A stretch of DNA of 64,000 nucleotides from a virus. Both the position numbers and the translations under genes were made by a program. Under the pieces are notes generated by a model that worked only from the letters and a program-made list of their open reading frames with translations, made no database searches and had not been told where the DNA came from. This document shows positions 1-49,022 of this stretch, piece by piece. The stretch spans positions 1-64,000 of IMG/VR virus record IMGVR_UViG_3300047471_000466; one strand, given 5' to 3'. Within the stretch, counting starts at the first letter, position 1. Each line of letters opens with the position of its first letter.

Positions 1-170
1 CTCCTGTGGCTCCTGTGGCTCCTGTGGCTCCTGTGGCTCCTGTGGCTCCTGTGGCTCCTGTGGCTCCTGTGGCTCCTGTCGCGCCAGCAGAACCCGCATC
101 ACCTGTGGCTCCTGTGGCTCCTGTGGCTCCTGTGGCTCCTGTGGCTCCTGTGGCTCCTGTGGCTCCTGTC
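1..170. repeat. 9-bp tandem repeat CTCCTGTGG (GGA GCC ACA on the minus strand)
   Basis: Two near-perfect arrays separated by a short variant segment at about 80-101. Confidence 0.95.
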
Positions 171-4894: not shown

Positions 4895-6175
4895 TCAAGG
4901 GGGTAAAATCCCTCGCAACCCTTCCCTCATAACTCCCATGAAGGAGGATCCACCGGTAGGGCCGGTAGGGCCGACAGGTGCGGCTGGTGGCGTTCCACCA
5001 CCGGCAACAGGGGTAGCGCCACGCAATTTAGTAATCATGGCGTCTTGTTCCGAGTTCTTTTTTACCAAGTCGGTAACGAGACCCAGAGTAAGGTCAAGAG
5101 CTTCGGCTTGATAAAAAGCTCGCGCCACTGCTTCGGGCGACACTTTACCAAGATCAACTGCTTGAACTTTGGCGATGCGCTCGCTCATGGCTTTGTCCCA
5201 AACTTCGTCTTCGGTCTTGGCGAAGATCGGAGATTCGGCGGTTAGCTTATTAAGACTGGCCGCAAGACTGTTCTTCCAGTTCGCCTCGATTTCTCGGGCA
5301 GATTGGATCCGTGCCGTTTCAGCATTTCGCCTTTGTTCTTCCTGACGTTGAAACGCGGTCTGCAGAACTCTCTGCTTCTCTGCGTTCAATTTGTCATAAT
5401 CTAAAATTGAAGAATCGAATCGCTGCATGTCCAGTCGATTAAAGCTCGTAGACAATTCAGAAAGGGCATCGCTTCGTTTATTGGCGTCCGGTTCTGTGAG
5501 AGCAGAGCGAAGTGCGCCAGCGTCCACACTATATTTGGCGGCCAGTGATTGAATTGTAGCATCTACCGCGGCCAAAGGCTGGGCGATATTAGTAGCGAAC
5601 TCTTCGCTGTTCTGATAATCTACGGCGGCAAGGCGTTCTTTAAATCCTGTATTTTCGTTGCGGAGTTTTTCGACTTCTTCATTAGTGACTGGAGGAGCTT
5701 TCTCAGCAGCCTCAAGTTTAGCAAGAAGACTTTTGTTTTCTTCTTCTAGCCGCGTGTTTGCATTTCGAACATGTTTAAATGCCGTGCCCGCGGCGACAGT
5801 CATTTTCTTCTGAGCCGCGTCTAACTGGTCGTCGGTTAGTTTCGGTTCAACTTCCGCAGTCGCTCCTGTAGGAGAAGGCGCTGGGGCAGCGGTAGCGCCT
5901 GTAGGAGACGGTTCAGGAGCGGCTGTTGCACCGGTAGGAGAAGGTTCGGGGGCAGCAGTTGCGCCGGTGGCAGGCTCGGGGGCCGCGGGGGGTGGTGTGG
6001 GTGGCGGAGTGGGCTCGGGAACGGGGGGGGGGGGGGGTGGAGTGGGTTCATCGGATTCGCGACCTTCTTTGGTTGGTAAAGCTTCAGGAGGAACAATGCC
6101 CTCCGGATAAGCTGCGGCCATGGCTCTAGAGAGAGCTTCGGATGCGGAAGTAGTGGATGTAGGTGCGTCAGGCAT
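4895..6175 (-). CDS. Capsid scaffolding protein (putative)
   Basis: Between portal and capsid; disordered Pro/Thr-rich N-terminus followed by long coiled coils. Confidence 0.65.
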   Translation of the reverse strand: MPDAPTSTTSASEALSRAMAAAYPEGIVPPEALPTKEGRESDEPTPPPPPPVPEPTPPPTPPPAAPEPATGATAAPEPSPTGATAAPEPSPTGATAAPAPSPTGATAEVEPKLTDDQLDAAQKKMTVAAGTAFKHVRNANTRLEEENKSLLAKLEAAEKAPPVTNEEVEKLRNENTGFKERLAAVDYQNSEEFATNIAQPLAAVDATIQSLAAKYSVDAGALRSALTEPDANKRSDALSELSTSFNRLDMQRFDSSILDYDKLNAEKQRVLQTAFQRQEEQRRNAETARIQSAREIEANWKNSLAASLNKLTAESPIFAKTEDEVWDKAMSERIAKVQAVDLGKVSPEAVARAFYQAEALDLTLGLVTDLVKKNSEQDAMITKLRGATPVAGGGTPPAAPVGPTGPTGGSSFMGVMREGLRGILPP

Positions 6176-6518
6176 TTGGAGTTGGTTCTTCGGTTAAGCC
6201 CTGCTCTCGGGCCATTTGTTGAGCGAGTCTTTCTTTGTCGGGTTGGTCCCAAGGTTTTCTATCGGGCATGTGTTCTACTCTAATTTCCGCCAAACCCAAA
6301 AGAGCACGCAAGCATTTAAGATACCCGTGCTGGGTCGCGCCAAACATGGCGTAGTAGTCGATCAAAGTATATTGTCCCGCTCCTGTCGGAGGGCCTTGGA
6401 GAGTGTAAAGACCTTCTTTTATGATAGCGATAGCGTCAACCAAAGCCGGTTCTTGCAATAAGTCCGCGAGTTCTTTGCGACGGGTAGGCGAATTACGCCA
6501 AATCTCTAATAGTGTCAT
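6168..6518 (-). CDS. Hypothetical protein between portal and scaffold
   Basis: 116 aa, overlaps the scaffold start. Confidence 0.7.
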   Translation of the reverse strand: MTLLEIWRNSPTRRKELADLLQEPALVDAIAIIKEGLYTLQGPPTGAGQYTLIDYYAMFGATQHGYLKCLRALLGLAEIRVEHMPDRKPWDQPDKERLAQQMAREQGLTEEPTPNA

Positions 6519-37700: not shown

Positions 37701-38701
37701 GCTAGGAAGTGTTTCCAAAAAGGAAATCCTCGCTCGTTGTGTTTGTTTAAAGCCCTCTCGCCTCTGTGGCCTTGATTCTCCAGCAATAGTCTAATTCCTA
37801 CTTCTGCCACTTCGACCACATTGTCGGGTTCTGCCTTCCATTGCTCGGGGGCCCATCGTATAACCGGAGATACGACAGAAGGAACGCCTACTGAAATCCC
37901 GTCTGCAGTAATCATATTAAAAGATTCAGTGTAGGAGAGTTGGAGTAAGAGATCCATTTTGCCAATAAGTTTTATGAATCGATCCCAGCTATCCCAATCA
38001 TGTTTGATTAGTTCAACTGAGGGCAATCCTTCCACCATTTCTTCTATGGCGGGCAGAGTTGTAGATTTACAGCCGTCGCCTCCGGTAGACATATGGAGTC
38101 TTAGCGGAACGTTTAACTGATTCTGTATCACCAGTGCTGCCGCAGCCGCGGTCATAAAATTTTTCTCAGGCCTGATCGCGCCGAAAGCCCCGATATTCAG
38201 AACGTCCGAATTCCATCGTTTTCCGTGGATGTGGCCGATAGGATACAGGTTTGGCAGTAAAACACAGTTCTCGTTGTAGACAGCCCGGAACCAATGAACA
38301 AACGAGTAGTTGTTTCCACCTACCATAAAGTTATCCACGGTCTCAGAGAATTCTGCATATAGGCGAAATAGCTTAATCGCGTTTGGATCCGCCTGTAGGA
38401 AGCCGATGTTCGAATGGGACAGAACCGCGAACTTAGTATGATGAAAGTGCCTGATAAGGCTTTTAAGATCGTGGAGAGTTAACCAGGGAGCGGAGATTAC
38501 TACGTGGGTAAAAGGACGTAGTTGATGTCTCGCCTTATCCAGGATTTTTACCACATCCACATTATGTCTTACGGCAAAAGCTTCCGCGTCTATTCCTTTC
38601 CCCCGCAGGTATTTCGCCGTGGTGTACCCGGCTACGTTTAATCCTACACAACTAGATCGAACCCAGTGAGCGAAGTCTTTGAAGAATATGGCAAGTCTCA
38701 T
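37685..38701 (-). CDS. GT-B (GT4-like) glycosyltransferase
   Basis: GAIRPEKN, D...QLSYTESFNMITAD....GVPSVVS. Confidence 0.75.
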   Translation of the reverse strand: MRLAIFFKDFAHWVRSSCVGLNVAGYTTAKYLRGKGIDAEAFAVRHNVDVVKILDKARHQLRPFTHVVISAPWLTLHDLKSLIRHFHHTKFAVLSHSNIGFLQADPNAIKLFRLYAEFSETVDNFMVGGNNYSFVHWFRAVYNENCVLLPNLYPIGHIHGKRWNSDVLNIGAFGAIRPEKNFMTAAAAALVIQNQLNVPLRLHMSTGGDGCKSTTLPAIEEMVEGLPSVELIKHDWDSWDRFIKLIGKMDLLLQLSYTESFNMITADGISVGVPSVVSPVIRWAPEQWKAEPDNVVEVAEVGIRLLLENQGHRGERALNKHNERGFPFWKHFLAHGIS

Positions 38702-39195
38702 GTGGTTTTAGTATAGCATGAAATTTCTAGAAAAAAATTTTTCTCTGTCGGTGATATACGCTCACACGCGGGACAGTATGGGGACGTGACGCGATAGGGG
38801 CGGGGCGGTCTGATGCAGCCCTAGTAGTGCAGACACGATCTGCACCCAGTAAAGGGTAAACGGATGAAGTCAGTAGGTAGTAGTAGGTAGTGAGATTTCT
38901 CTGGGGAATGTCAGACGCCTTGACAGTGTTGCGAGTAGCCTTGGCACAGTGTAGTAGATGCAATCACTACATTCGGAAGGACGCAATAGCGAGTAGCTCA
39001 ACAAGCGTAAGCAAACCTGCACAGCCCTCACTGAACGACGAATAGACCAAACTTCAAGCCAGAAAAAGCCAGTGAACCTGTATCACTGAAGCACTGCTGC
39101 ACTGACCTATGCATAACATACATAGGTTAGACAACATAGCGGAAGTTAGACATGTAGTTGAAGCTGTGCTGCTCCCCAAGCGGGGACAGTCAGCC

Positions 39196-39459
39196 ATGAC
39201 TGCAATCTATCGAAACGGGAGAACATTCGGAAAAGTGCCGATGCGCGCCTTCACAGGTAGCAAAGGTCGTTGCCGTGAGGCTTCACGTTGGGAATTCAAT
39301 CCCCAAACGTTGAAGGAAGCGGAAGTTTTCCGGGGCAAGCGCGAAGATCGTAGTAAGCACATTACTGCATGGTCACCTTGCCCAACTGCGCCAATCGAAA
39401 CTCCAATGAGTTTTTACCAGCGCAATATGTTCAAACGTTTCCACCGTGTAGCCTCGTAA
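39196..39459 (+). CDS. Possible early hypothetical protein
   Basis: Basic ORF, start uncertain. Confidence 0.4.
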   Translation: MTAIYRNGRTFGKVPMRAFTGSKGRCREASRWEFNPQTLKEAEVFRGKREDRSKHITAWSPCPTAPIETPMSFYQRNMFKRFHRVAS

Positions 39460-39795
39460 GAGGCTGCATAGGTCAGTGTAGTAATGCTTATTACAACTTT
39501 GCGATATTGCTTCAATGTCGCATTGCACCAGTGATTCAAGGTCGCATCCCTGAATTATTATGCGTTGGCTATAACAACGCTTTAAGGGTGAATGAGCATC
39601 ACAACACTATGGGCACGCTAGGTGTTTAGTGTGACAGGCACGTTATGTGTCTGTCTGTGATTCTGCTAGGTCATATTGTTGCATTGGTGCAATGTCGCAA
39701 GGCTACATAGGTGAATAGTTTAATTCAACTAATGTTTTGTGGCGTTTGCGTGGTGCAACGGACTTGGCAGATAACAGACAGCGAAAGGAACAACT

Positions 39796-40266
39796 ATGGA
39801 CAACCAAATTGTTCCCGCAAACTCTGTTACGTTGGCAGAGATTGATGAGTCGGAAGACTTGGGTCAATACAACAAGCCAACTGTGTCTGCGTTCATCGCA
39901 GCACAGCACGGCATCGTATTGTCCAAGGGCAATCGCAATCTCAAGTTTATTGTGGCTTCACTTGTGAAGTCCGGTAAAACTGAGGCGGCTGCAAAAGACC
40001 TCGTTAAACTCGGTCGCAAAGCGCATGATAAGCATGTTGCCGGATATTACAAAAATATCCGTGCGGTCAATGCTGTCATTGCGGCAGACCCCGATTATCG
40101 CCAGTCCATGAAAGTCTGGCGCAATAAAAAGGGTGATCTTTGTGCCAACACGATGTACCGCAAAGCGGGTGTCGTGTCCTCTGCAACGTATGAGGCAATG
40201 CGGGACGAATTGGCTGCGCTCAAGGCAATTGTGAAAACATTGCCTGCTGCGCCAGTCAAGGCGTAA
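39796..40266 (+). CDS. Early hypothetical protein (basic)
   Basis: AAAGGA SD; 156 aa. Confidence 0.75.
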   Translation: MDNQIVPANSVTLAEIDESEDLGQYNKPTVSAFIAAQHGIVLSKGNRNLKFIVASLVKSGKTEAAAKDLVKLGRKAHDKHVAGYYKNIRAVNAVIAADPDYRQSMKVWRNKKGDLCANTMYRKAGVVSSATYEAMRDELAALKAIVKTLPAAPVKA

Positions 40267-40394
40267 ATCGGTGTCTGCTGCAATGCTCAATGGTAGCATT
40301 GCAGCAGCAATCGCTTTATGCGAATGAAAAGTCTGAGGCTTTGGCCTTTGCCGCCAATATAAGACTCAGCATAGCGTTCGCATAAAGCACAACT

Positions 40395-40535
40395 GTGGAA
40401 AAGCTAATCGTCCAAATAATCCGACGACTTGACGCTCCATGCTATGGCGATTTGCCGCTAACTGCGGCTACTCTCGCCAATATCTTGGAGCAGGAGTTGC
40501 TGGATTATACTGTCGCCCAAGAGGCGAAACAATAG
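40395..40535 (+). CDS. Small early hypothetical protein (46 aa)
   Basis: GTG ORF lying exactly between two hairpin elements. Confidence 0.45.
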   Translation: MEKLIVQIIRRLDAPCYGDLPLTAATLANILEQELLDYTVAQEAKQ

Positions 40536-40579
40536 TTGCGGTGTCGGCTGCTCCTTAGGGAGCAGCTTGACCGCTATTA

Positions 40580-41605
40580 CGCGGAATAGTTAGGCGACTT
40601 ATCGCCTTGTGCGGCGCATGGAACGCCTGTGGGAAAGGGAGACTTGTCTCCATGAAACACATCCATGCCACAAGCCACAGTGTAACTCAGGCAGGTTCTT
40701 CAGCACCGTAAACCTTGAAAGTGAAAAACGGGCTTATTGTCGTAATGCGACACTGCTGCCTTGCAACAGGGTTCCGTGAAAAATTGGCACGGCGGAAAGC
40801 CAATACCGATGTTGCAAGGTAGCCAGTCGCATTGTGAAATGCCAGCGGCGGGCTAATAGCCGTGTGTCGAAAGATACCAAACAGAAGCAATGCGGCCTTC
40901 CGTCTCCTAAGGTGAGAGTGAGACACATATAGAACTGGGCGCACGTTGCGTCCACAAGCAGGTTCGTATGGTAAGAGTAACGGGCGGCGGCCATAGCTGC
41001 GTAAGGTTTCCCGACGCCTAGACGAATAGATGAAGACCTGACAACAGCGTGTAGGAGCGATTGAGGTTGATAGTTCCAATCAGCATTGCTCTGAATCTAA
41101 AACGAACGTGCTATCTCTGCGGCAGTCTCTTTTTGGTGATGGAGCCGTGGGTATGAAACCAACGCAGGTTGGGAAGCTGCGATATCAAGGTTCCGCAAAT
41201 AGAACGATGCAATAATAGCATTGCGACGTGCTGCGGCGTGGATGGTTGCTATTCTATTCCACGCCGTAGTGGTCGCGGTGTAAAGAAGTTAACGGGTAAA
41301 GTCCACCCTTTTGTGGTTCCGTGCTTGCTCCTCTGCGACGTGAATGTTGCTACGATAATGCGCATCGTGTTGCGACACTGCAGCATTGTTTCAAGGTGCC
41401 ATAATAAATTCAGGCAAGGCAGTCTGATACCTGTGAGCAATGCTGCATAGCCGCAATACTCCCGATTGCAGCACAATCGGTGTCGGTATTGCAAGGCTGA
41501 CCTAACAGCTACAATCAAATGGGCATAGCGGAAGTGTAGTTCCGCCTTGGTGTTTGCGACACACGCGGCATTACGACGGTAGTGCTGCGGAGCCGCAATT
41601 CTGCG
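40580..41605 (+). ncRNA. Candidate large structured non-coding RNA (about 1 kb)
   Basis: No credible plus-strand ORF; many 11-14 bp stems whose G-U pairs favour the plus strand; GNRA loops; potential end-to-end pairing. Confidence 0.55.
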
Positions 41606-41615
41606 GAAAAAGGGG

Positions 41616-41801
41616 GTGAGTTATATAAAAGCTGAAGTAAAAAACAATACTTTGTTTATTGAGATTCCACTCCAAACACCCACGGCCAGCGGTTCGGGCA
41701 AGAATCTTGTGATTGCCTCGACTCACGGAATCACGGTGTCTGGAGCATCTTTCAATGGCAATCCCGTCAAAATCGGGCTAAATGCCTTTGTGAAGGCGTA
41801 A
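41616..41801 (+). CDS. Small conserved-type hypothetical protein
   Basis: S.SGK..VIAST.G...IGLN pattern. Confidence 0.7.
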   Translation: MSYIKAEVKNNTLFIEIPLQTPTASGSGKNLVIASTHGITVSGASFNGNPVKIGLNAFVKA

Positions 41802-42099
41802 TTCTCGAAGTCGTGGCTCTGGCAACAGAGCCACGCATTCGGTAATTGTAGTGAGTTCGATTGTGGACTTAAAATTACCAAGCCACGCATGGTAAACAAA
41901 CCGTGCTGTTTGCAATCCTGTAAGCCGTGGCTAAATACTTTGTGTGAGTGAGATAATCAGGTGAGGTATGCGCTACCAAAATACTGACGATGGAAAAGCT
42001 GGTAAAGGATGAGGAGCGCAGGTTAATCCTTGGCTTGAATCCCTACCCACTCACACAATTCAATTTGCCGCGTGGCGGCTAACATGTAGGATAAATATT

Positions 42100-45000
42100 A
42101 TGAGTCCAATCATTCTTTTCCTTCGTGTTTTCGGGAAGAAAGACCCAACTCAGACGACGGGTGATTTCAAGAATGAGTGCGGAAACCTCACTCAGGACAG
42201 GACATTCGTTGCTGAAGTGGAAGCTTTCGCCAAGAAAACTGGCATTATTCCGGAAACCGAAGTCATCAGCTAATCGCTGTCGCAGCCTTGGAAACAGGGC
42301 TGCGCAAGCGGTGAGTTTTATGAACGCGTATTACTACACGAACGTCAAAAACGTTCCCTTTTTAATGATGATAGTCTACGCCAAGGATATTGAAGAGGCC
42401 GATTGGTTTTTTCAAAAACAAACAGGCGTCAATCCGAATAAGAATTCATTTATCACTTGTCGAATTGAGTTTAATTCGACTCCAATTGTATGGAAAAAAT
42501 AACCCTGAATAACAGGCTCGTATTACGCGGCCCTTTGGGCTGGCTCTACGAGCCTCAATGGGAAGGCCAAGACGGGCTTTGCGCAAGCTGCGGTAAGCCG
42601 CTGTCAGAGCATCCTGATTGGATTTTGCCTGATCGTGTGGTTAAATACTGCAATGTTTCCAAATCTTGATGCTTTAGTTATTCCAGTCGGCCTGGTTATT
42701 GTCGTAATTCTTTTTGTGCATGCCATTCTGGCATCGCTTCCGTGAAATATGGTTAACGAACATCCAACTATGGAAGAAGACATTCAAAGCCGTGTAGCGG
42801 CTGATGAAGAAATCACCAAGTTGCAGCGAGTCAAGGAGAATATTCTGAAAACTGCGCTTGATGATGATACCAAATGGCGATGGATTCGTCGAATAGACGC
42901 TGAAATCGCCAAACGATTATGATAGAAATAATCCGAAAAGACGGCTCGTGGATAAAGTTCTCATGTCCTGAGTGGAACTATCTGTCCCCTGCTGCTCAGA
43001 AAGACATTATCAGGAAGTTACAAGAAAATCCGGTTAACATTATCTGGCCTCGGCCTGAGACTTGGCATAAACGAGAAATTGTTCGATCACACGGCGAACT
43101 GAAAACTCCGTGATGGCGGTAGGCTTGCCATTTGTTTCTAGCAAGCTGCGCTAGCTTACCGAGATTCGTGTGAGCCCCGCTCCCCTGCGGCCATGTCCCG
43201 ATAGGGTTTGTTACATGGCCGCAGCGAGCAGGGTTTTCCTGCTGAAAGGGGGTGAAAATAAATGGTTACAGTTAGAATACGCCGATCTAAATGGTCGCGT
43301 GGTAACTGCGATTCCAGCAATATGTTGTTGGTTAAAGACGGAAATCCCAGACTAAACAAGTCCTTTAGATCAGGAAATATGTGTTGTTTGGGTTTCGCTT
43401 GTCTGGCTTTAGGGGCCAAGAAAAAAGACATTCTTGACCAAGCTATGCCGGACATGGTCGCCGACGACGAGGCAAGAGAAAAGTTAAAGGGATTGGTGAA
43501 TAGTCACGGCGACAGCAGCCAGTTTGCGTTGGATGCTGCAGAAATAAACGATAATGATGAGATTTCAGATCGTGAAAGAGAGCGCGAGTTGCGGCAGTTA
43601 GCCAAAGAAAATGGGTTTAGGTTCGTGTTTGTTCCGTAAGTCTTGCTTCCCTGCTACCGTGGTTTTCACGGTAGCAGTCAGCAACGTTTACCGTTGCGAA
43701 CTATGAAACAACACATAAAGACAGTAATCGCTGAACTGCGAAATCCAAACAGATCGTTGCGGCACAATCTCGCAATTATCCGTTGGAGAATGCAGTATAA
43801 CTACTGGCAATAAGTGAATAAGTGGGGCTGAGAATCAATGGTATTCTCAGCCCCATCCTTCACTTATTTTCGTGGGTGAACGGTGAAAAACCTAGTAGCT
43901 AATGCGGAACGGAAGCTTGGTGAGCAACCCGTTAGTTCTAAAACACCAAAGCCCATGCACGGTTCTACGCTGTGCATGGGCAACCAATTTATGAAGGTAA
44001 AACTAACAGACAGAGTCGTAGACGTTGAAGTCGTTAGGATGAACACTCGCACAATGTGGGTTCGTCTTCCCGATGGAAACGTTATTAAACGTCATAAGCG
44101 CAAACATGTGGTGACAGAAAATGAAGGACAATCGTGAACCAGAGTCGAATCCTTTAACAAAAAAAGAATTCGATGAAATTCTCAGGAGAACGGATGGCTT
44201 CGAGTCTTTCGTTCCTACTTGTGAAGATATCGTAAGATATCGTTCTCAAGCTACTCGGCTACTATTAAAGTTGCCTTGTTGGGGTTGTCCGGTGGAAGCC
44301 CAAATCACAAAAGTTGTGAATGGAGGAGAATACTTCGTGTATTCAATCCTTGGTATGACAAACCACTGGGCTTGTATCCGCGAGGTAGAAATTTTATACA
44401 TGTTTCCGCCTCAAGAGTTAACGGAACGAATTCGTGATTTAGAAACACCCGTAGTAACTGTGGGAGAAGTGAAGAAAGTCCTAAAGAAAGCGGATAAAAC
44501 TAACAAGCAAATAGGTAAAACATTAAAAGAGTTATTTGATGAACAAACCAAGAAACAGAAACGTTAAGAATCGTGCAGCAGCACGGTCTCCAGGTAAACG
44601 GGCACGATTACCAGTTAATGGAGCGCCGCAACAATTAACAAACCCTAAATTCATGAGTTCGCCTCAGAAAAAGGCGTTTGCTGAAGGTGTGGAGATTTGG
44701 GTATGATTTCTGAAGAAATTGAGCGGGCAATGGAAGACCTACAGGAACAAATTAGCACTTTACGATCAAAAGTTCATTATCAAGATGATCGAATACGCGA
44801 ATTAGATAACAGAATCTATGATTTAGAGGCAAAAACATGACACACATACAAGAATACCTGACAGGACAGATTAGTTACACCGAAATGTGGCGGGAACTCG
44901 CCGATTCCGGTGAGTTGGATTTATTGCCTTTGGCGGTAGAGTAATCCGGTGGCCGCTGCATTCGAAAGAATGCAGCGTGACCGGTTTATGAAATTTCGTA

Positions 45001-46480: not shown

Positions 46481-49022
46481 TTGAAAGAAATACAAGAGTT
46501 TAAACATAAATTAGGTATTTTAAGGGATTCGCTCCGCGTAAAGTTAGTGGAGCTTGAGAAAATTCAGAGTGAATTTTCCAATATGTCCGAGAGTTTAGAT
46601 CGGGCTGTTGAGGGGTTGACTGATTCAGTAGACAGTTTGAGCGCAGAAGTATGATACGATACGAAATTAGAGAAAGAGCCCCGATTTTCGGGATAGGCTG
46701 GATTGTTCGCGCCGCGTTTGACAACGTTGGTGACGCCCGAGGTTATTGGTCTACAGCAGTATTTGATGGGGTGGAGGCGGAATTGGTGCAGATTAAATGC
46801 ACTGAAACCCGTCAACACTACCATTCTGCGGATGGAACGGAAGCCTATTAATTTTATGAAACTAGGAAGCCCTGAAGCAATGAGACAAGAACCCTCGAAC
46901 CATGGTTGGGAAGAGAGGGAAGCAGAGCGGGATGAAGCGGAGCGTAAAGCAGAAGAGTTAAAAGAACTCGAAGTTCACATTAAGAAAATCTTAATCGAGA
47001 CTGAAAATTCGTGGATAATTAGGAATCTTCAGCCAGTTATTGCAAACTTATCTCCACGAGTGTATATCGAAGAGGCGATCTTGGCTAACCAGACTCCACG
47101 ATTTGATTATCTCGCCGCCAAGAGCAAGACGAGCGAAATCATAAATGAGTGGACAGAAATTCAAGAAGAAAAGTATCGTCTAGCTGATATGGCAGCAGCA
47201 AAACAAGAATACGACGCTGCAACGCCAGCGGAGAGAGCGAAAGTTCTCGGAGAAGAGGATGAAGACGAATGTCCCCATGACGAACACGATCATGGTATTT
47301 GTTTGGATTGCGGCAAGGATATATGGGACGATGTGGTAGCTGCGGCTGAATTTAGAGCAGATAGTTTGGAGGATAGATGAACGCTAAAGACATTCACCAG
47401 TTGGCCGTTCAAATTTGGATTAAAGAGAGCCCTTTAGCTGGAAAAATTCCTGATCGTAAAGAAGTAGAGTTTTTACGAGCGTGGATTCGCTCAACAATAG
47501 AAGGATTAAGAATTTACAGGCTATGCAAAAAGCAATGATTATGTGGCCCTATCTCTGTTCCCGTCTTGGCTCCTTCGCTTTACCAAGATTACGAAGCACT
47601 GTCTACGCCAGACGGAACCAATGGCGATCAATTTATGAACACTTACCTCGCAGTAAAAGATGATCGAGTTATCGCACGAGCCGATTCTCGTGGAGAACTT
47701 TGTTTGCAAATTATGTCAGTTTTGGTTGATGATGCGGGTAAAGTTTTTATAGGAACCAATCAAGATTCGATATCATACGACCCAAAACAGTGGTCAAAAG
47801 AAGAGGCTTTTAGAGATTTTGTGAGATACCGAATGAAACACAAACTACCAAGCGGGGTAGAAGTATTTTATTGTGAAAGAATATGAAAACGTATGTAACC
47901 GTCTGCAAGAATGTAATCTTGCGAAACCTAAAACGAGGAAGGAATGACCCGCCGATTCGCGTCAGCAGGGGTAAGTATGGTCGTGCTAGTCATCACCATA
48001 CTTACCGAAACGGACGAATAACTGTGCGATCAGAAATGCACGAACCGTTGCCTTGGGGCGCAAGAGTGTGGGTGGAGATAGAAGACTAAGCAAATGAGTA
48101 CTGAAATAGCGGAAGTAAAAGGCAGGTATAACAAACTTGATCTCTCGCAATTTTATGGCGGGAAAAAAGAAGGACTGTGTTTGCAGTTGACTCCGTGGCC
48201 TCCTGACCCAACCGGAGCCTATGTTCAGTTTACCAAAACCCAAGTCCAACAACTCGTTCGTGAATTGCAGAACTGGTTAGGTGAAACAGAGTTGCCTTGG
48301 GAGCCTGCAGATGGGCAAGATTATCGAGATCAAGAATGAAAATCATAGGAGATACACAAATAGTTAGAACCGTTCCTCTGTCAGAAGACATGGGCGGGAT
48401 TGCGGAATGGGAAATCCCTGTCGCCTTCAACGTTGAAGAATTGTATAAAGGCAGCGAGGAACCAGACGACCCCTCTACTTGCACTATAAATGAGCGGGTG
48501 AAAGTGTTGGAAGACACGGGCCCGTTTAAAGTAGGCGACATGTTAGTCCTTACAGGAGAGGAACAGCGAGAAATAGAACAAGAGGAATTACAAAATCAAT
48601 TATGAAAAACATACCAGAGACTTATCGAGGGTCTTCCTCGGGGTTCATTAAAAGAACAAAAAAACCGGTGATCGACATCGTTCTCCAGAATGGTTATATC
48701 TACGACATTGTGGACATTCCAAAAGGAACCACGATAAGAGTTTTTGATTACGATACAGACGGAATTGACGCCGATCAGTTACGTAACTCGCCCTACGATG
48801 AGGGCAAACAAGCAGTATTAACATATTGGGAATAACATGAGAGCAACAATAGAAGATCTAATTAAAGATTTTAATGACGTAGCGAATCGAAAGAATCCAA
48901 GACTCCCGTTTGATTTATATGAGGGCATCCGAGATATCATTGATACCTTTGGTGGCAAAGCATCAGATGCAGGGAAGTTTTTTGAGGAGTATAGACGAAC
49001 TCGACACATCGACAAAATATAA
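46481..49022 (+). other. Run of hypothetical genes (46481-46654, 46651-46851, 46856-47380, 47566-47886, 47883-48089, 48094-48339, 48336-48605, 48602-48835, 48837-49022)
   Basis: Coupled plus-strand ORFs. Confidence 0.6.

Follow-up and report, generated by a model that had tools for sequence, protein, structure and literature searches.

The kilobase at 40580-41605, which a first-pass annotation had put forward as a discrete non-coding RNA of GOLLD- or ROOL-like complexity, is part of an unusually structured 5-kb early region and is probably not a single giant ornate RNA. The observation behind that annotation was real but mis-bounded, and its ornate-RNA interpretation is partly supported. The stretch has no coding function that we could recognise, its structure is local and specific to the plus strand, it is modular, and it is partially conserved in a relative. 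The best reading, to which we give somewhat less than even confidence, is that of a modular hairpin array acting in cis on an early polycistronic RNA. With one genome and a partial comparison to draw upon, the case is a lead and not a discovery.

The window analysed here comprises the first 64 kb of an IMG/VR record with a length of 79,247 bp. The sequence is also present in rhizosphere and soil metagenome runs, and its source is an uncultured soil phage. The phage gene set includes a family-A DNA polymerase, a helicase, an exonuclease, a ribonucleotide reductase and rIIA/rIIB, together with a weak terminase match. Genes to the left of 38.7 kb lie on the minus strand, while approximately 39.1-48.8 kb is occupied by small plus-strand ORFs of unknown function and then rIIA/B; we infer from this gene layout that the plus-strand block is early. 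Neither blastn of the flagged region nor tblastn of the terminase found a match among GenBank phages, rIIA is at most 33% identical to its best matches, and a search of IMG/VR with the rIIA and 156-aa proteins returned no relative. Related loci were sought across viral, metagenome and genome contigs with rIIA, the 156-aa protein, alignments A1 and A3 and P0012 as queries, and none were found; a 25-mer of the second conserved block described below likewise had no match in viral contigs. None of the runs in which the stretch was found is an RNA run. Searches for tRNA and tmRNA genes found none.

Two further observations concern the record itself. Tandem repeats of 9 nt, CCTGTGGCT, make up both of its ends (window 1-170, genome 79075-79247); their minus-strand reading gives collagen-like Gly-X-Y triplets, and the record’s “direct terminal repeat” call may thus stem from the assembly of a repetitive gene and not mark true genome ends. 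A run of approximately 15 G at 6023-6037, in or beside minus-strand ORFs at 4895-6252, could be either a slippage-prone tract or a sequencing artefact.

The absence of a credible gene from the flagged kilobase, as originally claimed, was borne out for 40536-41615 by codon usage, Pfam, PHROGs, a protein collection and the indels of a relative found in metagenome run X4. The gene-free extent is certainly 1,080 nt (40536-41615) and probably 1,349 nt (40267-41615), so that the boundaries first given enclosed a real structured gap but were drawn too narrowly, the gene-free structured stretch beginning at 40267 or 40536. Codon usage was scored as log-odds, with the 29 ORFs of 250 aa or longer as the training set; the four gap ORFs of at least 86 aa scored -11.0 (130 aa, minus strand), -9.0 (93 aa, plus strand), -7.2 (89 aa, minus strand) and -3.3. 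The gap ORFs had no matches in Pfam or PHROGs and were absent from a collection of 15 billion proteins, and a search of 5.8 billion proteins with the 130-aa ORF yielded no homologue. In the X4 relative, replaced segments have changed length by +95 and -53 nt, neither a multiple of three, which excludes a conserved long ORF in the gap. As protein-coding genes the gap ORFs fail in codon usage, homologues and frame conservation alike. The 46-aa ORF at 40395-40535 is doubtful as a gene; its codon score is 8.6, but it has no Shine-Dalgarno (SD) sequence, is absent from the protein collection and lies inside a 34-bp hairpin.

Small proteins that escaped these searches could also account for the conserved parts of the stretch, and the obvious candidate is a 29-aa ORF at 41067-41156, the sole ORF in the region preceded at a suitable distance by an SD-like AGGAG. 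Its start falls in the second conserved block. However, that start is a TTG, the codon score is negative (-3.8 for a 31-aa form), there is no family match, and the X4 alignment stops at 41115, in the middle of the ORF. We consider this explanation highly improbable.

The gap ends at a 61-aa ORF (41616-41801, plus strand; codon score 8.1) with an SD-like AAAGGGGGTGA at 41607-41617 and a plus-strand hairpin after its stop (41807-41840). In the protein collection the 61-aa protein occurs from its own contig alone, with no homologue beyond. An identical AAAGGGGGTGA stands at 43245-43255 ahead of a 125-aa ORF (ATG at 43262). The 61-aa ORF lacks a canonical start at normal spacing, as a GTG overlaps the SD sequence and an ATA follows it by 8 nt.

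Between these limits, the spacer is predicted to contain several short hairpins as well as long imperfect ones of 26-39 bp, of which there are at least five; two conserved blocks lie between them. All features are given on the plus strand. Single-hairpin z values were computed from 200 dinucleotide shuffles and range from -3 to -7; they are inflated because the hairpin boundaries came from the fold. An upstream hairpin block at 40267-40535 (z -7.9), just outside the coordinates first annotated, opens with a perfect 13-bp hairpin (40275-40307) directly after the stop of the 156-aa gene, and continues with a hairpin at 40313-40388 and the 34-bp hairpin (40416-40508) that overlaps the doubtful 46-aa ORF. 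Helix probabilities in this block are 0.96-1.0, and single hairpins reach z -5.5 and -7.2. The first conserved block (40533-40697) contains a hairpin of gene-end type (40538-40574), a small one (40593-40606) and a third at 40616-40668, with z values of -4.5 and -3.2. It is followed by long hairpin A (40740-40837), whose 35 bp fall into four helical segments and whose asymmetric internal loop is rich in A (helix probabilities 0.95-0.99; z -6.0).

The second conserved block (40936-41115) coincides with a predicted closed domain (40936-41112) that consists of a hairpin at 40936-40954 and a segment, 40957-41112, closed by 4+6+7 bp. Although the closing helices have probabilities of 0.91-0.98, folding of 40930-41120 gives z -1.3 on the plus strand and +1.4 on the minus strand, and the fold of this domain is no better than chance. 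Further downstream are a 26-bp hairpin with six G-U pairs (41218-41281; z -7.0) and long hairpin B (41367-41459; -41.8 kcal/mol, z -5.3), which has a four-helix layout and an A-rich loop like those of A. Hairpins A and B are paralogues: their 5′ arms are 74% identical over 46 nt, four pairs are maintained despite changes on both sides, and in an nhmmer search over the genome they are the only two copies. The last part of the spacer is a variable 3′ segment (41441-41607) flanked by direct repeats (41441-41465 and 41583-41607), with small hairpins at 41453-41492, 41528-41545 and 41565-41588 (z -3.8 and -5.1).

Most of the stems listed in the first-pass annotation were recovered with helix probabilities of 0.94-1.0 (40755-40768/40810-40823 with 40740-40751/40826-40837; 41230-41242/41258-41270; 41380-41391/41435-41446; 41565-41574/41579-41588). 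The exception was 41345-41377, a weak 6-bp alternative that is absent from the minimum free energy fold. Other elements of that description were not reproduced. The stretch had been described as almost fully tiled by stems, but local folding is only average across 40840-41215 (z -0.4 to -1.8 in 300-nt windows). Instead of several GNRA-capped hairpins there is a single clear GNRA tetraloop, GAAA at 40869-40872. The helix proposed to close the whole stretch, pairing 40580 with 41598, was seen in one fold and is not among the helices with a probability above 0.7 once the flanks are included.

A short oriented motif, KCAAGGY, has nine plus-strand copies in 39.1-41.7 kb where the genome-wide rate predicts 1.1, while its complement occurs only three times. 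The position of the copies (39536-41497) within hairpins is inconsistent. A reading of the CAAGG motif as a CsrA sponge was rejected, the motif being without GGA. Two other local readings were also discarded: a tetraloop-receptor pairing of CCUAAG (40907) with UAUGG (40967), whose flanks are unpaired, and a group II domain V at 41141-41170, which forms only approximately 10 bp and is 450 nt away from the 3′ end. As a separate observation, the plus strand of the small-gene block has CATAGCGGAAGT at 39135 and 41524 and a third occurrence, as ATAGCGGAAGT, at 48106; the recurrence may be either a signal or coincidence.

The original argument is strongest in its use of the repeated G-U pairs, which had been taken to indicate a plus-strand RNA over DNA cruciforms, and this stood up to analysis. 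When the 14 hairpins of 40267-41615 are folded on each strand, G-U pairs number 24 on the plus strand and only five on the minus strand. Since the GC skew of the flagged stretch is only about +0.1, base composition is unable to explain this ratio. Against shuffles, 40600-41599 folds with z -5.82 on the plus strand and with z -2.13 on the minus. The difference is also seen in individual hairpins, with the minus strand losing 17 kcal/mol at 41218-41281 (-42.0 versus -25.1) and 9 kcal/mol at 41565-41588 (-14.7 versus -5.5), and hairpin A falling from -46.5 to -39.4 kcal/mol. The minus-strand fold is weaker for all tested hairpins except 41453-41492, which is equal on both strands. A mismatch-type test using the no-GU fold gave only 4:0 in the region and 17:9 in the island, and when applied to arbitrary 3-bp-flanked pairs it was dominated by noise. 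The asymmetry in G-U pairs and energy supports selection on a plus-strand RNA.

This evidence also bears on the alternative that the stretch is a DNA-level element, such as a replication origin or regulatory region, in which the conserved blocks would be protein-binding sites and the hairpins either incidental or acting in single-stranded DNA. In keeping with such an element, the most conserved block has no significant RNA fold, a short oriented motif is enriched, and divergent transcription and the GC-skew switch at about 38.2-38.7 kb lie approximately 2 kb from the flagged stretch. Nevertheless, no iterons and no AT-rich unwinding element are present, no tandem or CRISPR-like repeats were found in the region, its GC content exceeds the genome average, and the G-U asymmetry and the energy gaps between the strands favour RNA. 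A DNA-level role is, in our judgement, distinctly improbable.

Whether the structure belongs to one large RNA or to many modules was addressed by folding 40536-41615 in full and with a pair span of at most 120 nt, in each case against 25 shuffles. The local-only fold gives z -7.0 and the full fold z -7.6. Long-range pairs contribute -42.1 kcal/mol, no more than in the shuffles (-41.4 ± 6.1; z -0.1), and all of the excess stability is therefore local. Helices with a probability above 0.9 are nearly all local, while long-range helices are 5-8 bp in length with probabilities of 0.7-0.9. Long-range complementarity is raised (20 versus 7.2 for 8-mers and 10 versus 2.0 for 9-mers), and part of it is made up of the arms of hairpins A and B and the CAAGG motif. 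Given this local origin of the stability, together with neighbouring mRNA that is equally folded, the proposal of a discrete, globally folded 1-kb RNA is not supported.

The accompanying claim that the stretch belongs to no known RNA family was confirmed, as cmscan of the whole window against Rfam 15 at gathering thresholds gave no matches. Permissive Rfam scans of 40200-42000 and 38600-44600 returned only miRNA and snoRNA noise (10-22 bits against cut-offs of 45-100). The covariance models for GOLLD, ROOL, OLE, HEARO and raiA did not match, and those for Intron_gpI, Intron_gpII and group-II-D1D4 had no matches at E ≤10; the stretch is thus assigned neither to these large RNAs nor to the introns.

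Structure comparable to that of the flagged kilobase extends from 39.06 to approximately 44 kb. After regression on GC content, 39.2-44.1 kb accounts for 19 of the 25 300-nt windows with the most extreme folding in the 79-kb genome, almost all of them on the plus strand, and 39.6-42.3 kb contains eight of the 22 plus-strand hairpins with ΔG ≤-40. For comparison, 1-kb coding control windows gave z +0.1, 0.0, -0.7, -3.0 and -4.8. Downstream of the gap, 41616-42100 folds with z -4.6, and throughout 39.06-42.1 kb the structure equals or exceeds that of the flagged kilobase, the 156-aa gene included. The mRNA of that gene (39796-40266, plus strand) has a folding z of -7.2, which is unusual for coding sequence, and the gene-poor structured leader upstream of it (39060-39795, plus strand) has z -9.7, the most extreme in the genome. 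As both are folded to the same degree as the gap, the folding does not mark a separate RNA gene.

The leader includes a 400-nt multi-branched plus-strand domain (39089-39489) with an 18+5-bp closing helix (39089-39112/39466-39489, probability 0.96-0.98). As a candidate discrete folded RNA, this predicted domain ranks above the flagged kilobase. A 116-aa ORF whose codon score is weak (3.7) sits exactly within it. A 46-bp plus-strand hairpin (39657-39775, -49.6 kcal/mol) ends 21 nt before the ATG at 39796. The 156-aa gene that begins there is well supported by its codon score (29.3) and 13 clusters of distant homologues. Its protein is predicted by AlphaFold with a mean pLDDT of 83 and has no significant PDB match (best E 0.12), and so gives no hint of an initiator or an RNA-binding partner.

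Hairpins are frequent at gene ends in this part of the genome. A hairpin with ΔG ≤-20 starts at the stop of seven of the 24 plus-strand ORFs with positive codon scores in 39-48.7 kb; among the other such ORFs the count is four of 117. No T runs follow the strong hairpins, leaving no U-tract, and a terminator scan found six sites where 6.2 were expected from shuffles; they are therefore not classed as intrinsic terminators. A promoter scan gave nothing above expectation.

The sole comparison with relatives was made over 39000-43000 with Logan contigs from four soil and watershed runs. It totals 357 substitutions, which for the region were counted block by block. Runs X2 and X3 contain the same phage, in pieces at least 95% identical. 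The X4 relative is more informative, with a 1,251-nt contig colinear with 40533-41457. The first conserved block differs at 10 positions in 165 nt (94% identity) and is flanked by DNA that cannot be aligned, and the second, at six differences in 180 nt (97% identity), is the best conserved part, while coding DNA nearby in the same run is 81-87% identical (39681-40323, 42062-42281 and 42488-42655). Hairpin A has nine substitutions and 18 gapped positions, and hairpin B 19 substitutions and six gaps. Elsewhere, segments have been replaced outright: 135 nt stand in place of 40698-40737 and 49 nt in place of 40834-40935, and the aligned piece at 41202-41281 is bounded by alignment joints. At its end the contig jumps from 41457 into TCTGCGGAA (equivalent to 41600-41608), and in a second X4 contig the place of this phage's hairpin at 41565-41588, immediately ahead of 41593, is taken by an unrelated 8-bp hairpin. 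This pattern suggests that hairpin modules may be exchanged while the flanking repeat (41441-41465 and 41583-41607) stays. The hairpin segments that are replaced or changed in length in X4 fit modules better than one architecture.

The same mosaic of alignable and replaced segments might be expected if the spacer were non-functional, that is, if early-gene cassettes had been lost or swapped by mosaic recombination and had left gene-end hairpins and fragments behind. The blocks with 94-97% identity would then reflect recent exchange and not selection. The generality of gene-end hairpins in this region is consistent with such an origin, as is the central part of the spacer (40840-41215), which folds no better than average. 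We nevertheless regard it as quite unlikely. Phage genomes rarely retain more than 1 kb of junk, runs from five studies retain the region at least in part, and maintenance of the hairpins on the RNA strand is shown both by the 24:5 ratio of G-U pairs and by the z of approximately -7.

A more substantial rival is that the flagged stretch, and perhaps also the closed 400-nt domain at 39089-39489, gives rise to one or more discrete trans-acting non-coding RNAs of a new class, acting for example as a dsRNA decoy for RNase III or an RNA-sensing defence, or as a protein sponge. Several of the observations above are in accord with this: non-coding blocks conserved above the flanking genes, strong folding specific to the plus strand, the A-rich internal loop common to the paralogous hairpins A and B, the excess of KCAAGGY (9 versus 1.1 expected in 39.1-41.7 kb) and the lack of a match to any known family. 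On the other hand, promoter and terminator signals are absent, there is no thermodynamic sign of a global fold, the adjacent mRNA is structured to the same level, and modules are replaced in the X4 relative. On balance we hold trans action to be doubtful, if credible. In its widest form, the idea is that the island at 38.75-42 kb encodes a new class of large early trans-acting phage non-coding RNAs in a lineage without a cultured relative. These RNAs would be the 400-nt domain and the 1.1-1.35-kb hairpin array with its two conserved blocks, and would serve, for instance, as dsRNA decoys or protein sponges against host RNases or RNA-sensing defence. This broader proposal strikes us as unlikely.

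According to the preferred reading, that of a hairpin array acting in cis, 40536-41615 and probably 40267-41615 would form an untranslated, hairpin-dense spacer within a plus-strand small-gene transcription unit starting at approximately 39.0 kb, assembled from independent modules. The hairpins could serve as double-stranded sites for processing and 3′-end protection, of the RNase III type known from the T7 early region, and could keep a long untranslated stretch folded, thereby barring Rho and single-strand-specific RNases. The role of the two conserved blocks would probably depend on their specific sequence, for instance as a protein-binding site or a start signal. Transcription of the spacer, its early timing, its cleavage and its effect on RNA stability are all presumed in this scheme.

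The cis-array reading leaves some of the data unaccounted for. Processing or insulation needs one hairpin per gene end, not approximately 1.1-1.35 kb with a dozen of them. Nor does a hairpin function explain why 40936-41115 is the best conserved block, since its folding is not significant (z -1.3). It is these two points, the need for a dozen hairpins and a best-conserved block that is the least folded, that keep the rivals alive. The hairpins also lack a U-tract, neither promoter nor terminator was found, and the block-wise conservation could reflect recent recombination between mosaic phages and not selection.

If the array is functional, approximately 2.4 kb of a 79-kb genome would be folded, untranslated early RNA, with one clear gene, folded to the same degree, between the two stretches. 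Such an investment would far exceed the single intercistronic hairpins of T7-like early regions, and would point to a strong, undescribed pressure on early transcripts, for example from RNases, Rho or RNA-targeting defences. As the lineage has no relative in the GenBank phage or IMG/VR searches, any RNA confirmed here would be new; the novelty is at present plausible but unproven.

Four known systems provide points of comparison. GOLLD and ROOL are large ornate RNAs of phages and prophages, with a global architecture, long-range helices and multi-way junctions. The flagged stretch is like them in its size class, phage location, lack of coding capacity and GC content above the genome average, but it has no Rfam match even at E ≤10, and there is no sign that multi-way junctions or long-range helices exceed chance expectation. 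Group I and II introns may likewise be approximately 1 kb in length, structured and conserved above their flanks. Here, however, the flanking ORFs are separate genes, and homologues of the 156-aa protein stop where that protein stops. For pervasive folding, an analogy can be found in the genomic RNAs of the RNA phages MS2 and Qbeta, as in both cases folding greatly exceeds that of shuffled sequence whether or not the RNA is coding (z -7 to -10 here), although the present RNA would be a DNA-phage transcript with no sign of RNA replication or packaging.

A further parallel is with the RNase III hairpins R0.3 to R1.3 of the T7 early region, which have similar intercistronic counterparts in T3 and lambda. 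In T7 these are single hairpins of approximately 60 nt between genes, whereas the present array has about a dozen predicted hairpins over a gene-free 1.1-1.35 kb, and the coding sequence beside it is highly folded too. In other respects the two are alike: long imperfect hairpins lie between or after small co-directional genes, have no U-tract and are enriched at stop codons, and their 26-39-bp helices with internal loops are long enough for RNase III. Hairpins of the T7 type, with approximately 20 bp or more and a position between cistrons, are found at 40292-40409, 40416-40508, 40740-40837, 41218-41281 and 41367-41459, and the genes that flank them are all on the plus strand.
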